Source of the DNA: Escherichia phage 4E8
Reading direction: 5' to 3' (one strand)
Length of the DNA stretch: 64,000 nt
Sequence record: OQ689734.1
Both the position numbers and the translations under genes were made by a program. Below, one piece after another: positions 44,623 to 50,315 of this stretch (positions are counted from its first letter, which is position 1; each line of letters starts with the position of its first letter). The notes beneath the pieces are model-generated. The model worked only from the letters and a program-made list of their open reading frames with translations, searched no databases and was not told the origin of the DNA.

Positions 44623-44931
44623 TTAGATAACCTTGTGCTTGTAGATGCTAGGGTTGAAGTAATGCAACCAGTTTATGTATTGTTTCTGTTCAAGGTAGTG
44701 TCTGCAATCATGACAAAAAGCATGACCCAAACCTGTTTCCTCGTTCAGCTTGAAGTTGATAAGAAGCTTCTGCTTTTGACAGAAGCTACATGCTTTAGTG
44801 GGCTTCACGTAGTGCATCCCATGAGATTGGGAAAAGTTTACGAAGCTCTTCATCAACAGTTGATGCGAACACTCGTACTTCATACTGAGCATGGTCGGAC
44901 AGTCGCTGACGACATAACTCTGACCAGCCAT
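44623..44931 (-). CDS. hypothetical Cys-rich (zinc-binding-like) protein
   Basis: 102 aa; CSFCQK...CHDCRH; 5' end overlaps the thyX 3' end in another frame. Confidence 0.35.
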   Translation of the reverse strand: MAGQSYVVSDCPTMLSMKYECSHQLLMKSFVNFSQSHGMHYVKPTKACSFCQKQKLLINFKLNEETGLGHAFCHDCRHYLEQKQYINWLHYFNPSIYKHKVI

Positions 44932-45445
44932 ATAAAGAACCTGTCCACACCCACTCAGTGATCATACCTTGAGGTAGAACGAATCGGGCTTGCTCTGGAG
45001 CAATAAACTTAATCAACTCATCATATGACTCAAGAGCTGTTTCATATGCCCGATTAATCAGAACTAGTGCAGAGTTTTGCGCTCCTGTGGTGAGGAGATT
45101 CCCCGCACCTGCATGGAGGTCCGAAGGTCTTTCAAAAATCTCTTTAGGGATGAAGAGTTCAACTGCTCCATCTTTATACCGCCGGGACATTTCGTTCCAC
45201 GAGAATCCAACTTGATGCTTGCCCAGCTGTCTCGCAATTGCGATTGGCGCTTTGCATCGGAAGCTAATTGTCGGATGGCGGAATGGTGTGACATGCTTTT
45301 CTCTGGCAAGGAACTTGATAAGGCGTTCATCTCGTTCATTTAACTCTCCTTCACGAGTAACCCCAAAGGAAACTCGAGCTGCATTAACAACAGATTTATC
45401 AGAACCCATTGCTTCAATTAGTGTTGCTTGTAATTGTTCGTTCAT
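44795..45445 (-). CDS. thyX: flavin-dependent thymidylate synthase (ThyX) homolog with divergent signature motif
   Basis: 216 aa; AARVSFGV...HVTPFRHPTISFRCKAPIAIARQL...FSWNEMSRRY and SDHAQYEV are ThyX-like, but the canonical RHR of the RHRx7S motif reads KHQ. Confidence 0.7.
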   Translation of the reverse strand: MNEQLQATLIEAMGSDKSVVNAARVSFGVTREGELNERDERLIKFLAREKHVTPFRHPTISFRCKAPIAIARQLGKHQVGFSWNEMSRRYKDGAVELFIPKEIFERPSDLHAGAGNLLTTGAQNSALVLINRAYETALESYDELIKFIAPEQARFVLPQGMITEWVWTGSLYGWSELCRQRLSDHAQYEVRVFASTVDEELRKLFPISWDALREAH

Positions 45446-45459
45446 CCTTGAATTCTTCC

Positions 45460-45675
45460 TTAGTAATGAATCTTTTTATAAACCATGTTGCTTCCACTTT
45501 CTGTTTCAATCCCTTTCTGGATTGTAATCTTAGAAGCACCAGTGTTAACAATTTTTAAAGCTCGCTTAAAGCGGCGAGCCTCTTTCCGTGTGGAGTATGT
45601 TGAGAAGCTAGGGATTGTGCTATCAAAATTAAACCACTTAACTACCCAAAAAGTAATCCAAGGTTTCTTTTCCAT
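45460..45675 (-). CDS. small protein, member of a 4-copy paralog family
   Basis: 71 aa; shares W..V...TRKEAR..K..LK and C-terminal ...HY with 47542..48163 genes. Confidence 0.4.
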   Translation of the reverse strand: MEKKPWITFWVVKWFNFDSTIPSFSTYSTRKEARRFKRALKIVNTGASKITIQKGIETESGSNMVYKKIHY

Positions 45676-45676
45676 A

Positions 45677-45949
45677 TTAAATACCTTTCAGAGCCGTGTC
45701 TAAAAATGCACGGAGATTAGATTCAGTTTGCATACCTGATAAACTATAATGAGCACCACTATTCTTATCAGGTACGACAAAGGCTGGGATACTGCGAACA
45801 CCATATTCAATGGCTCGCTCTCGACCATCACCTTCAGAGATATTTACTTCTTCAACTTCTACACTGTAGTCAGCCACAACCTTCTTAAACACAGGAGCCA
45901 TAGCTGCACATGGAGCACAGGAATTACTATAAAACTTAATTACTTTACT
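45677..45949 (-). CDS. thioredoxin/glutaredoxin-like protein (CxxC); start set to MSKVIKFY
   Basis: FYSNSCAPCAAMAPVFKKV resembles the thioredoxin WCGPC active-site region. Confidence 0.55.
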   Translation of the reverse strand, partial: SKVIKFYSNSCAPCAAMAPVFKKVVADYSVEVEEVNISEGDGRERAIEYGVRSIPAFVVPDKNSGAHYSLSGMQTESNLRAFLDTALKGI

Positions 45950-46142
45950 CATTCTATTCCTTGTTAATAAACAGATTGATATGACGCTGGGTAGCAGGAA
46001 CAACAATAAAAGATTTATACTGACCTTTTGCTAAGTCATGAGCAATCTTCTTTGTCTGACCAAGACCCATCACACAGCCACTAACGATAATGGCATGTGC
46101 TTGTAATTCTTCAGGTAGGTTTAGTTTCACTCTTTGGGTTCC

Positions 46143-46328
46143 TTATAGCATACAAAGAATAATAACAAGAGGTAGTGTTATAGCAAAATGTACCAGAACA
46201 ACACTACCAAGCTTGATAGCTTTAACATCCTCTTCTGCTGGGTTTTCTTTAATTGCTAAATTTCGAGCTTTATATATAACAGTACCAACTATTAATGACC
46301 ACACGGCCCACACAATCAGTGAAATCAT
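46143..46328 (-). CDS. small two-TM membrane protein (paralog 1)
   Basis: 61 aa; two hydrophobic segments; similar to the upstream gene (AIVWSVWAILVGGIVY / LIVWAVWSLIVGTVIY, KENP). Confidence 0.4.
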   Translation of the reverse strand: MISLIVWAVWSLIVGTVIYKARNLAIKENPAEEDVKAIKLGSVVLVHFAITLPLVIILCML

Positions 46329-46337
46329 ATCAAACCC

Positions 46338-46559
46338 TTATGCAGTCAACAGGTGGAGAAGGAAAGGAATGACAACAGAGAAAACTACCAGAGCAATGCT
46401 ACCATGTTTAATAGGTTTAGCATCATTCGGATTCTCTTTAAGCATCTGTTTCTGAGCCAGATAAACGATACCACCAACAAGAATTGCCCACACAGACCAT
46501 ACGATTGCTGAAAACATATTCATATCCTTATAAAGAAGTTCGCCCCACCTCTTAAACAA
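46338..46559 (-). CDS. small two-TM membrane protein (paralog 2)
   Basis: 73 aa; see paralog 1. Confidence 0.4.
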   Translation of the reverse strand: MFKRWGELLYKDMNMFSAIVWSVWAILVGGIVYLAQKQMLKENPNDAKPIKHGSIALVVFSVVIPFLLHLLTA

Positions 46560-46580
46560 AGAGACAGGGCGGAGGTTTGA

Positions 46581-47156
46581 TTAGTAAGACACATCACCAC
46601 TGGAGTGGGACATGTTGCTCTTGACGAAGTAACAGAACTTGCCAAGACCTTCATTGATTTCTTGAAGCATACTCTGATCAACTGGATAGGTGCACAAGTC
46701 TGAATCAAACTCGTCCATCTTCTCAATGATACACATAAGAGTCATGCACATGTCGGAAAGCATGCCGTCCATGTCGAGATCAGCGTTACCTTCTCGGAAC
46801 CAAGCATGACCTAAATAATTACTAGCAGTAGCATCCACTTTAACACAATGAAAGCGCATACGCTCTGCTATTCGGTCGCCTGCCTCACGAGCATAATCTT
46901 CTAGTTCATCGAACATACCATGAACACCTTGGAAACCAGCTCCAGAGACGTTCCAGTGGTAGTTCTTTGCTTTGATGTGTAGAAGTTCAAGATTAGCTTG
47001 CACACCACACAAGATGTGTTCTAAGCTGTTACCGCTAATCAGTTTATTCATTCCCTCAAGACGAGAGATAGAAGAGTCAGCAGTAGAGAATGGGTTGCTA
47101 GAACCCACTCGTGTTAGTTCTGGTAAGTCGAAGACATTATTATGCATTAGGTGCAT
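46581..47156 (-). CDS. Dps/ferritin-like protein
   Basis: 191 aa; YHWNVSGAGFQGVHGMFDELEDYAREAGDRIAERM closely parallels the Dps ferroxidase-site region (HWN..G..F...H......D..AER). Confidence 0.65.
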   Translation of the reverse strand: MHLMHNNVFDLPELTRVGSSNPFSTADSSISRLEGMNKLISGNSLEHILCGVQANLELLHIKAKNYHWNVSGAGFQGVHGMFDELEDYAREAGDRIAERMRFHCVKVDATASNYLGHAWFREGNADLDMDGMLSDMCMTLMCIIEKMDEFDSDLCTYPVDQSMLQEINEGLGKFCYFVKSNMSHSSGDVSY

Positions 47157-47469
47157 CCCCTTCTAAGTTAGTTGAATTAGCTACATTACGAGCAATGTTA
47201 TCCATGACCTGTTGTGTGATAACAATGCAATTCTGAGGGTCTACTGATTTAGAACGCCCCATTTCAGGGTCATAGACTTTGACTCGCTTGGCTGTTGAGC
47301 CAGTAACTTGCAACACTTTGAGAAGATAACCTTGATTTCCAATAGACCATGCAACAACATCACGATTCTTGATATAACGACCAAGCATATCACGATGATA
47401 GAACTGCTGCATAACTTTAGCTTTGCTAATCTCTTCGGCTGGCGGAGCCACTTTACTCAAATCTAACAT
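47140..47469 (-). CDS. hypothetical protein
   Basis: 109 aa ORF. Confidence 0.4.
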   Translation of the reverse strand: MLDLSKVAPPAEEISKAKVMQQFYHRDMLGRYIKNRDVVAWSIGNQGYLLKVLQVTGSTAKRVKVYDPEMGRSKSVDPQNCIVITQQVMDNIARNVANSTNLEGDAPNA

Positions 47470-47541
47470 TTCACTCTCTCCTGTTCAATACAATATTCTT
47501 ATACTGTATATACATTTGAGAGTGATCATATCTACTACCAA

Positions 47542-47751
47542 TCAGTAGTAAATTACTTTAGACATAAAAGAACCAGTGTTAGGGTCTTCATACCAGCGAT
47601 GTATGTCAGCGCTTTTTACTATTGTGCCCAGAATCTTCAACTGTTTCTTAGCAATACGAGCCTCTTTGCGAGTGTCAAACAATTTGATGCTATCTTTTCT
47701 CGTGTGTTGATCAAGATCCCAAACAACACGAATCGCCCACATCTTTTTCAT
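47542..47751 (-). CDS. small protein, paralog family member
   Basis: 69 aa; W.IRVVW...TRKEARIAKKQLK...YY. Confidence 0.4.
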   Translation of the reverse strand: MKKMWAIRVVWDLDQHTRKDSIKLFDTRKEARIAKKQLKILGTIVKSADIHRWYEDPNTGSFMSKVIYY

Positions 47752-47966
47752 TAGTAGTGCACCTTTCCGCTGATATAAATACGGCCTGAGGTATACTCAT
47801 AGCCCTTGAGAATCTTAACAGAGGTAGTGGAGCCATCGTTTAGTGCACAGATTGACTTCTTAAGATTGCGTGCATCTTCTCGTGTCTTCTGGTAGGTCAT
47901 GGTCACACCCCCACTCTTCCACTCTGTTTTAACTAACCAAACTATTTTCATAAGACCTGCTCTCAT
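47751..47966 (-). CDS. small protein, paralog family member
   Basis: 71 aa; IVWLVK...TREDARNLKK...HY; 1-nt stop/start overlap with neighbours. Confidence 0.4.
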   Translation of the reverse strand: MRAGLMKIVWLVKTEWKSGGVTMTYQKTREDARNLKKSICALNDGSTTSVKILKGYEYTSGRIYISGKVHY

Positions 47967-48163
47967 TAGTAGTACACCTTGCTTCCAGCCATGAACGCCC
48001 CTGTCGAGCTTATCATGGCTTTGCTGATAGTAACTTTCTTACACCGTAAACATACCTTCCAATTCTTTTTACAGATTCGAGCTTCTTGTCGAGTGTTACA
48101 AAAAATAGCCGAAGATATTTCTTGAGTGTTGTTGTCATAAACACGAACACACCACTTTTTCAT
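47966..48163 (-). CDS. small protein, paralog family member
   Basis: 65 aa; W.VRVY...TRQEARICKK...YY. Confidence 0.4.
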   Translation of the reverse strand: MKKWCVRVYDNNTQEISSAIFCNTRQEARICKKNWKVCLRCKKVTISKAMISSTGAFMAGSKVYY

Positions 48164-48366: not shown

Positions 48367-48900
48367 TTAGACACCCTTAGAAGCAACTACACCCTCGCTA
48401 CCATTATAGCGACCCTTAACTGCATAGGAATGTTCACCGGCATGTGAATGCTCAAACATTACCATCTGACCGACACGCATACCAGCACGAACACGTAAGC
48501 TGTGGTGCTTGGTTACGTTGTGGAATTCGAACGTCAGCTTGCTATTATTAAACCCAGCGTCTGCCCACCCGGCGTGAAGGTGGTTCAAGCCACAACGAGC
48601 CATTGAGGAGCGGAGTACAAACAGACTTGAGAGGTTATCTGGAAGGTTAAATTCTTCCATTGAGTGAGCTAAGAAGAACTGTCCCGGAGTGATGACAATA
48701 CCATCTTCAGGGATTTTCACCTCTTTCCACTTGAGGTTTTCTTTAGCATCAATATCAACAATGCCGTCAGCCTGTTCTTCAACAAGGATAGTATCACCAA
48801 TACGGATATCCACACTAGCAGCGTTAACATATTTATGCTCCGCATCTAAAAAGCCATTATCAATAACGCTGTGTAATTCTTGAGAACCTAAAAGACTCAT
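48367..48900 (-). CDS. dCTP deaminase family (Dcd/dUTPase-fold) protein
   Basis: 177 aa; AASVDIRIG, LRSSMARCGL, HAGWADAG and GRYNGSEGVVASKG parallel conserved Dcd segments. Confidence 0.65.
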   Translation of the reverse strand: MSLLGSQELHSVIDNGFLDAEHKYVNAASVDIRIGDTILVEEQADGIVDIDAKENLKWKEVKIPEDGIVITPGQFFLAHSMEEFNLPDNLSSLFVLRSSMARCGLNHLHAGWADAGFNNSKLTFEFHNVTKHHSLRVRAGMRVGQMVMFEHSHAGEHSYAVKGRYNGSEGVVASKGV

Positions 48901-50315
48901 GAGTTTCTGTTTCCTTGTACAGATGATGCCAAATTGTTAATCATGTTACGAGCTGTTTCACGAGACAGTGTAACACCTGCTAAGTTACTATCAAGTTCAC
49001 CAACCATTTCACGAGCAGCAGATCGTAGTTCTGCACCAAGTGCAGTATTAGAGTGAGCCAAACCATTACGACGACTATAAGGGCGAGGGGCTTCGTTAGC
49101 GTCATTAGCTAAAGATGCAAAGCCAGTACGAGCAGCTTCACGAGCCGCTATCGCTGCTACTTGATCTTCCATATGGGTTGGCACATCACCAACTTCTACA
49201 CGTTCTATATCACTAGCACGTAGACCCTGAACAACAGAGCTTACTGTTTCCCATGAACGACGAGAACGCTGTAAATCTCCCATTGACGGAGAAGAAGCAG
49301 GACGAATAGTTACCCCACCTGTGTCATGAGTTACATGCCATGTATGGTTGTGGGTGTCCGTCCCAGAAGATCGTGCACTACCAAAACTGCCAGTGAAAGT
49401 GTCACGTCTGTTAGTTCCTGGAGTCCAAGGTTGTGTGATTGCTTCAGCACCGATAGTAACTAACCCACTAGACCATTCTGTCTGTAGGTTAACTTCTTCA
49501 TCCAGATAAATATGACCTACTTCCGGAGGAATATTTAATGCAACCTCCATCATCTTCAAGGTATAATGACGACGTTGATTCTGATACAAGTTTACACCAG
49601 CCATAGGTCCAACTAGATCACTGATAAGATGAACTTCTGGCTCACCAAAAGCACCCATCGCAAGGTGCATGTATTCAGTAGAACTGCTATAAACTGCAAC
49701 AGTTGCTTCAGGCCACTTTTTGTGAACATATTTCATTTCACGACTTGATACTACAGGAATGTCACGAGTATACGACATTGCAAACAAACCTTCATCTGAC
49801 ACATACATGTCATCAAGAGTCATGAAACCCTGACAGATCATAGGGAAGCGACCACATAGAGTGTTCATATCCAGAGGAAGGTTAATCATCATCTGAATCT
49901 TCACTTCATCAATCTCAATTTCCAGAATCTCTTGGAAAATGAAAAGTGCATCAGCGTAAGTTGCTCCGGTGATAGGCTGAGCTAAGCGAGATGTAACTTG
50001 AAGCCCCTTACTCTCTGTCCAAGACAAGAAGTTGTCAAGGAACAGTGCAGCATTACTTACGTTAGCAGGGCTGTTTTCCTGACGAGTGTTCCAACGTAAT
50101 CCTCCTTGAACTAGGAAGATATCAACATCATTCGGAGTTCGGTTTTGGAAGAACGTATCACGAATAGCACCACCTGCAATAACAGGGTAGATACCATCAG
50201 GAACTACGTTGTCTCTGATCAGATTGCGAATCAGATCAAGCCCTACGCTGAGGGCTTCTCCTTCTTGAAGGTTTAATTCAGACAATGGAATCTTAATCAT
50301 TTCTACATTTTCCAA
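48897..50315 (-). CDS. nucleotidyltransferase (Pol-beta superfamily) domain protein with long C-terminal extension
   Basis: 472 aa; [23 protein letters not shown] fits hG[GS]x(9-13)DxD of minimal nucleotidyltransferases (CCA-adding/poly(A) polymerase head); C-terminal ~250 aa unassigned. Confidence 0.45.

Follow-up and report, generated by a model that had tools for sequence, protein, structure and literature searches.

Gene content and organisation of the locus

The window analysed here is the whole 64,000-nt stretch of Escherichia phage 4E8 DNA (OQ689734.1), which represents a phiEco32/SU7-like prolate (C3 morphotype) E. coli podophage of the Gordonclarkvirinae, with Suseptimavirus SU7, HC-25922, 101114UKE3 and IME267 as its closest relatives; the phage origin of the gene under study was thereby borne out. 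The ORF list of the window contained a 191-aa reading frame on the minus strand at 46581..47156, exactly where the first-pass annotation had placed a gene for a phage-encoded Dps/ferritin-like protein. The gene, its upstream partner and the associated elements are given below, with residues numbered from the first codon of the 191-aa frame.

47525..47552, minus strand: sigma-70-like promoter candidate, TTTACT-16-TATGAT, a consensus match upstream of the two-gene unit.
47140..47469, minus strand: upstream partner gene (phrog_10984; phiEco32 gp68 orthologue), 109 aa, basic with a pI of 9.1, its stop overlapping the Dps ATG.
47182..47188, minus strand: TAATGTA motif, the core of the phage-sigma consensus tAATGTAt, 35 nt upstream of the Dps ATG and inside the partner ORF.
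46581..47147, minus strand: predicted CDS of the Dps-family mini-ferritin, 188 aa from M4, orthologue of phiEco32 gp67 and SU10 CDS67.
47019..47147, minus strand: clade-specific N-terminal extension, residues 4-46, non-basic, with a conserved MHNN(V/P)F(D/N)LP tip.
46860..46958, minus strand: ferroxidase-centre segment, residues 67-99, at the end of helix A and along helix B, with H67, W68, H79, D83, D94 and E98.
46541..46571, minus strand: 13-bp GC-rich hairpin that starts 10 nt after the Dps stop (dG -18.6 kcal/mol, z -2.6).
45677..45952, minus strand: thioredoxin with a CAPC active site, 91 aa from an internal Met, in the same middle-gene module and conserved across the lineage.

The true start of the Dps gene is most likely M4 at 47147, giving a protein of 188 aa, because the homologues all start with MHNN, the SU7 annotation has the same start, a GAAGGGG Shine-Dalgarno sequence lies 9 nt 5' of the ATG, and this ATG shares nucleotides with the preceding gene's stop codon (ATGCATAA). 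The partner gene and the Dps gene are a conserved pair, and their translation is predicted to be coupled. A partner homologue was located immediately upstream of Dps in Privateer and in Aeromonas BUCT695 and ~1.3 kb away from it in 7-11, and the partner gene was present in 130 phage records with the same host genera as Dps and a nearly identical distribution. The partner protein had no match in Pfam, NCBIfam or PADLOC, and neither it nor the Dps protein matched any PADLOC defence family. The AlphaFold2 model of the partner (pLDDT 66) consisted of an N-terminal helix and a small five-stranded β-barrel, for which the fold search returned weak, generic Tudor/KOW/SH3 matches, none of them at E 1e-3 or better.

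After the sigma-70-like candidate we found AAATGTAT, which resembles the phage-sigma consensus (AATGTAT element). The candidate site at 47525..47552 was ~90% conserved to phiEco32, and a promoter is annotated at the corresponding position in SU7. The tAATGTAt consensus of phage-sigma promoters has been reported for SU10 and phiEco32 (PMC4281155). The second copy, TAATGTA at 47182..47188, is a possible internal promoter; it may also be kept for coding reasons, because the same letters encode a conserved Asn-Val of the partner protein. In the window as a whole, TAATGTA was observed 19 times against 9.9 expected, and its strand mostly followed gene orientation: plus-strand copies prevail in the late structural half and minus-strand copies in the replication half (for example 1414, 9183 and 22918 on the plus strand, and 34333, 42690, 47182 and 59343 on the minus strand). 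At the other end of the unit, the hairpin was identical in SU7, and in phiEco32 the stem was kept while the loop had diverged. Its T-tract is weak, and it is likely to act as a terminator or an mRNA-stabilising element that closes the two-gene unit.

The gene had been described as lying among nucleotide-metabolism genes, and this context was confirmed by a dCTP deaminase gene (48367..48900) and ThyX (44795..45445), which flank the region. It had also been placed next to a thioredoxin-like gene; a thioredoxin does lie nearby, at 45677..45952, but three small ORFs (~570 bp) separate the two. Between Dps and thioredoxin, the ORFs at 46143-46328 and 46338-46517 (both minus strand) were tandem paralogues with 45% identity, encoding hydrophobic proteins of 59-61 aa (phrog_9296) with two putative membrane-spanning segments. 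Four further paralogous ORFs of 65-71 aa (47542-47751, 47751-47966, 47966-48163 and 45460-45675, all on the minus strand; 25-35% identity to the first) had in common a TR(K/Q/E)(E/D)AR..KK motif and a C-terminal (Y/H)Y. Three of these four form a tandem array close to the upstream end of the Dps unit, in the same place as phiEco32 gp69-71, and the region of small paralogues is where the window departs most from its closest relatives. Farther upstream, between the genes for the Pol-exo subunit and the dCTP deaminase, a 472-aa ORF (48897-50315, minus strand) had a match to the phrog_12715 'nucleotidyltransferase' family only (E 5e-151), no Pfam domain, and an apparently low-complexity C-terminal half.

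Family membership, ferroxidase centre and predicted fold

The profile search that had been proposed as a check on the first-pass assignment matched both Pfam PF00210 (Ferritin-like), at 32.9 bits relative to a gathering cut-off of 24.5 (E 7e-8), and phrog_3636, the latter over the full length of the protein (E 1e-52). The PF00210 alignment covered residues 59-102 only, which correspond to helices A-B. When the protein was compared with the PDB by phmmer, ~50 solved Dps chains were matched, the best of them M. smegmatis Dps2 (E ~1e-9), and the four matches among the 60 listed that were not Dps each had E > 0.3. Because of the PF00210, phrog_3636 and phmmer results, we judged the similarity of the ORF to Dps to be far beyond chance. 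The NCBIfam Dps equivalog NF006975 was not reached, with 34.7 bits against a cut-off of 114.

The segment from residue 67 to 99 (46860-46958 of the window) reads HWNVSGAGFQGVHGMFDELEDYAREAGDRIAER. Every residue named in the motif string of the first-pass annotation was present here, but the spacing given was slightly off and the string had no regular-expression match as written: it placed six residues between the last two Asp, where the actual gap from D83 to D94 is ten residues with D87 in between, so that four residues were missing. The ligands H67, W68, H79, D83, D94 and E98 aligned with H51, W52, H63, D67, D78 and E82 of E. coli Dps at identical spacing, and H67, H79, D83, D94 and E98 mapped exactly onto H31, H43, D47, D58 and E62 of L. 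innocua Dps. We take the E. coli and L. innocua Dps sequences used as references to be correct; in both, the ligand numbers coincide with residues of the expected kind. Across 186 aligned relatives, which extend to distant cellular Dps at ~26% identity, H67, H79 and D94 were invariant (186/186), W68 and E98 were found in 184 and 183 of the 186 sequences, and position 83 was D or E in 157/186. The near-invariance of the ferroxidase ligands argues for selection on the metal site. Absence of the ferroxidase residues had been named as grounds for doubting the assignment; all five ligands and W68 were present on alignment.

The AlphaFold2 model, a monomer built on a 27-sequence family alignment, had a mean pLDDT of 82.7, with the core from residue 45 to 181 mostly above 90. 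It contained helices A (45-69), B (75-102), C (129-154) and D (158-181) and a short BC helix (111-116). This is the Dps topology: a four-helix bundle of the ferritin-like type whose long B-C loop carries a short helix and which has no fifth (E) helix. A non-ferritin fold had likewise been raised as an argument against the assignment, and what the model predicted was a four-helix bundle of the Dps type. The best 50 Foldseek matches listed from the PDB were all Dps chains, with no ferritin or bacterioferritin among them, and the model superposed on MsDps2 and B. anthracis Dlp-2 with an RMSD of 1.2 Å over ~134 columns. A classical ferritin or bacterioferritin (24-mer) was considered and rejected, given ligands in the Dps pattern and four main helices with a short BC helix. 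Taken together, PF00210 above its cut-off, the intact ferroxidase ligands and the Dps fold upheld the original Dps/ferritin-like identification.

Among solved structures, M. smegmatis Dps2 (2z90, 8hwz) and B. anthracis Dlp-2 (1jig) were the best matches (E ~1e-9), with identical ligands and the short BC helix; however, their identity to the phage protein was just 24-26%, sequence similarity was confined to helices A-B, and the tails and pore residues differed. Similarly, E. coli Dps belongs to the same family and has the same ferroxidase spacing, but its Lys-rich N-terminal tail is absent from the phage protein. In E. coli Dps this tail is used for DNA binding. The phage protein is acidic (pI 4.86), and neither of its tails is rich in Lys or Arg: the N-terminal 46 residues contain one K, two R, two D and three E, or three basic against five acidic residues, and there is no K or R in the C-terminal tail. 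With this pI and no basic tail, the label "DNA-binding protein" is without support from the sequence and is inherited from the family name, and the DNA protection through binding that the first-pass annotation had implied is likewise unsupported at this level.

The proteins of the Kuravirus/Suseptimavirus clade have an N-terminal extension of ~43 aa, a C-terminal tail with a conserved terminal Tyr, and a Cys/Met-rich helix C, all of which are missing in the ~145-aa orthologues of Grimontviridae. Within the N-terminal extension, the model placed a low-confidence helix at residues 29-41. In the Grimontviridae orthologues (7-11 and Privateer types) the N-terminus is instead mildly basic, for example MLTARPKRN. 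We considered whether the N-terminal peptide could be a T4-like capsid-targeting or cleavage (LxE) motif or a clamp-binding motif; the Glu is not conserved among the homologues. The pore Asp residues of L. innocua Dps corresponded to D153 (D121), P158 (D126) and S162 (D130) in the phage protein. Because only one of the three is positionally kept, the route of iron entry may differ from that of L. innocua Dps. In the phage Dps family the pore positions carry a P-V-(D/T)-Q-N motif, and acidic residues (D148, E149, D151, D153 and D160) are clustered around the C-D loop. We also considered the conserved cysteines C50, C104, C137, C142, C155 and C175 as an extra metal or redox site linked to the nearby thioredoxin and found no support for this: they are lost piecemeal within the clade, and C137 and C175 are probably core substitutions and not a metal site, as cellular Dps has hydrophobic core residues there (L/V/I and A/I/L).

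Relatives, origin and published annotation

The Dps gene was found in 134 of 50,697 phage records, distributed across Gordonclarkvirinae and Grimontviridae and nearly all from one prolate podophage lineage, so that the statement that such proteins are uncommon in phages holds for this phage Dps family. Identity was 99.5% to the SU7 and HC-25922 proteins, ~82-84% to those of Kuravirus proper, and 33-43% to the shorter orthologues of Salmonella 7-11, Proteus Privateer and the Cronobacter and Aeromonas prolate podophages (Grimontviridae). A HMMER scan of 1.84 billion cluster representatives returned two matches at E <= 1e-30 and 12 at E <= 1e-10. Similarity to the Dps of the E. coli host was limited to 39% identity over 41 residues; this figure, the low NF006975 score (34.7 against 114 bits) and the 12 matches in 1.84 billion at E 1e-10 led us to reject a recent capture of host dps. 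Based on these comparisons, we concluded that the gene belongs to a small, isolated and old viral branch of Dps.

The nearest orthologues, phiEco32 gp67 (ABY52868), SU10 CDS67 and, both labelled 'DNA-binding protein', SU7_66 and the HC-25922 protein, have the same length and terminal extensions, and their position after gp68 and their downstream hairpin agree with the window. Relative to these SU7/phiEco32-type orthologues there was essentially no difference, and the window contains the same gene in another isolate; what has been published on it as annotation goes no further than a DPS domain. The Grimontviridae Dps proteins (Privateer gp068/QIN94861, Salmonella 7-11, Cronobacter vB_CsaP_009, and Aeromonas BUCT695 and the LAh phages) are members of the same viral branch and have in common with the window Dps the ferroxidase residues and the PV(T/D)QN and YF(V/I)(K/R)S motifs. 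The replication-module context is also common to both, but the Dps gene of Grimontviridae is immediately followed by nrdD, unlike that of the window. In both phage families the order is primase/helicase, Pol exonuclease subunit, (nucleotidyltransferase-like), dCTP deaminase, small ORFs, gp68-like and Dps, followed downstream by ThyX in Gordonclarkvirinae and by NrdD (anaerobic ribonucleotide reductase) in Grimontviridae, with thioredoxin nearby. This synteny, conserved in both families, makes for a robust link between Dps and the synthesis of DNA and nucleotides. At the Grimontviridae loci compared (L002, 4398-4694; L003, 4471-6564), BUCT695 has a full-length nrdD and a GrcA-like gene, and Privateer just a 98-aa fragment annotated as ribonucleotide reductase.

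The gene has already been annotated and published as a conserved gene of phiEco32-like phages, and its identification here is an ordinary one that is not new. The phiEco32 record (EU330206) lists gp67 as "DNA-binding protein; member of the Dps family", and the Dps family is also named in the papers on SU10 (PMC4281155) and Privateer (PMC7881722). The SU10 study described CDS67 as a middle gene containing a DPS domain and common to all five C3 phages sequenced by then, and detected its product by mass spectrometry with 6 peptides and 35.8% coverage (PMC4281155). Our full-text literature search turned up neither biochemical nor genetic work on a phage Dps. What the present analysis adds is the isolated viral branch, the acidic protein without a basic tail, and the two-gene unit between a promoter-like site and a hairpin.

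Proposed function and alternative readings

The reading that we favour, with a probability of roughly 0.6, is that the gene product is a dodecameric ferroxidase, expressed as a middle protein, which clears Fe2+ and H2O2 while phage DNA and nucleotides are being synthesised. The gene would be expressed from the middle block of replication and nucleotide-metabolism genes, and by homology its product would assemble into a hollow dodecamer, as suggested by the fold and by a metal site that requires a two-fold partner. Its ferroxidase centres would lie between subunits, with H67 and H79 (together with D83) contributed by one subunit and D94 and E98 by the other, and would oxidise Fe2+ with H2O2 as the preferred oxidant, the Fe3+ being deposited inside the cage. 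Both Fenton reactants would in this way be removed while the phage DNA is replicated and the dNTPs are made. The family, the metal site, the fold, the conservation and the gene organisation come from the present analysis, and the expression of the protein from the SU10 mass spectrometry (PMC4281155). Because the phage protein is acidic and has no basic tail, it probably serves to detoxify iron and peroxide, in the manner of Listeria Dps or Bacillus Dlp, and not to coat DNA as E. coli Dps does. Its best functional analogue is L. innocua Dps, which is also acidic, has no basic tail and has ligands that map exactly, but which carries D126 and D130 at the pore where the phage protein has P158 and S162. 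The function may also have drifted from that of cellular Dps, because PF00210 covers helices A-B only and the NCBIfam score is far below its cut-off. Furthermore, a simple detoxifier role does not account for the clade-specific N- and C-terminal extensions, for the Cys/Met-rich helix C or for the conserved partner.

A DNA-binding or DNA-condensing protein that coats replicating phage or host DNA, possibly with the basic partner as a DNA-contacting adaptor, is in our view unlikely. DNA binding is known for some members of the Dps family, mildly basic N-termini occur in the short-clade orthologues (7-11 and Privateer types), and the Dps-partner pair, conserved across two phage families, includes a basic protein (pI 9.1) with a small Tudor/KOW/SH3-like β-barrel, a fold that often binds nucleic acids. 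The charge of the phage Dps itself (pI 4.86, with three basic and five acidic residues in the N-terminal 46 and no basic residue in the C-terminal tail) speaks against this reading. It also counts against it that several characterised Dps proteins that have no basic tail, among them L. innocua Dps and B. anthracis Dlp, lack DNA binding. In addition, the partner model has a pLDDT of 66 with no fold match at E 1e-3, and a contact between Dps and the partner is putative. We consider it very improbable that the protein is a remnant without catalytic relevance or a scaffold put to another use, such as an inhibitor or decoy that contacts a host factor by means of the conserved N-terminal MHNNxFDLP peptide, with the ferritin fold serving only as a multimerisation platform. 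The conserved short linear motif at the terminus of a disordered linker, the conserved C-terminal Tyr, the diverged pore residues and the isolation of the branch from cellular Dps would all fit such a scaffold, but the five ligands and W68 are near-invariant over deep divergence, including in the short clade that has no extensions, and a scaffold role is hard to sustain because this invariance implies selection on the metal site. The PADLOC search, which matched no defence-related family, weighs against it as well.

Whether the protein is packaged was among the checks suggested by the first-pass annotation, and the published proteomics point both ways. For Privateer, the Dps-family protein was found by LC-MS/MS in virions purified on step and equilibrium CsCl gradients, alongside ten structural proteins, and its function was called unverified by the authors (PMC7881722); this detection in purified virions hints at a role beyond the infected cytoplasm. 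The SU10 sample, on the other hand, was a PEG-precipitated lysate and not CsCl-purified, and the DNA polymerase and thioredoxin were also in the precipitate (PMC4281155), so that we rejected the SU10 detection as evidence of packaging and took it as evidence of expression only. A true virion component, in which a Dps cage in or on the prolate head would guard the packaged or incoming genome or deliver iron to the next cell, would agree with the Privateer result and with a gene that is core in, and restricted to, the prolate C3 podophage lineage, but we regard it as quite unlikely. The gene lies in the middle replication block and not in the late structural block, and the cryo-EM and mass-spectrometry study of SU10, in which only major gel bands were analysed, named gp20-24 as the head-internal ejection proteins and did not mention Dps (PMC9509320). 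A dense, iron-loaded cage could also co-band with phage in CsCl, and a cage of ~250 kDa and 9 nm would be too large for the tail channel.

A further proposal, which we hold to be unlikely, is that the viral Dps branch is more than a plain cytoplasmic detoxifier: the Dps protein would form a two-component unit with its basic, gp68-like β-barrel partner, or a virion-associated iron-loaded nanocage that travels with the prolate head, and the Kuravirus-type N-terminal MHNNxFDLP peptide would be a docking motif. If true, a ferritin cage would here be put to a phage-specific use that is so far undescribed. Under the favoured detoxifier reading, a Dps cage is a core gene product of a whole, strictly lytic lineage of prolate podophages, and among the reports found in our literature search none tests what use a virus with so brief an infection cycle has for a scavenger of iron and peroxide. 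Should burst size under oxidative or iron stress depend on the gene, this would provide a clean example of phage-managed Fenton chemistry during genome replication. It would be relevant to applications, since phiEco32-like phages are under development for therapy of ExPEC, APEC and ETEC in inflamed settings that are rich in ROS and limited in iron.

The analysis also yields small practical corrections to existing records, one of them to the "DNA-binding protein" label discussed above and the other to the label "integrase", which is attached to the Dps orthologue in many GenBank entries, including those of IME267, 101114UKE3, MLP3, ES17 and EcoN5. An integrase was rejected as a candidate, as no recombinase family was matched in Pfam, PHROGs or NCBIfam and the only matches were to Ferritin/Dps; judged by these profiles, the label is an annotation error. 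Left in place, it could flag strictly lytic phages that are candidates for therapy as temperate and disqualify them needlessly.
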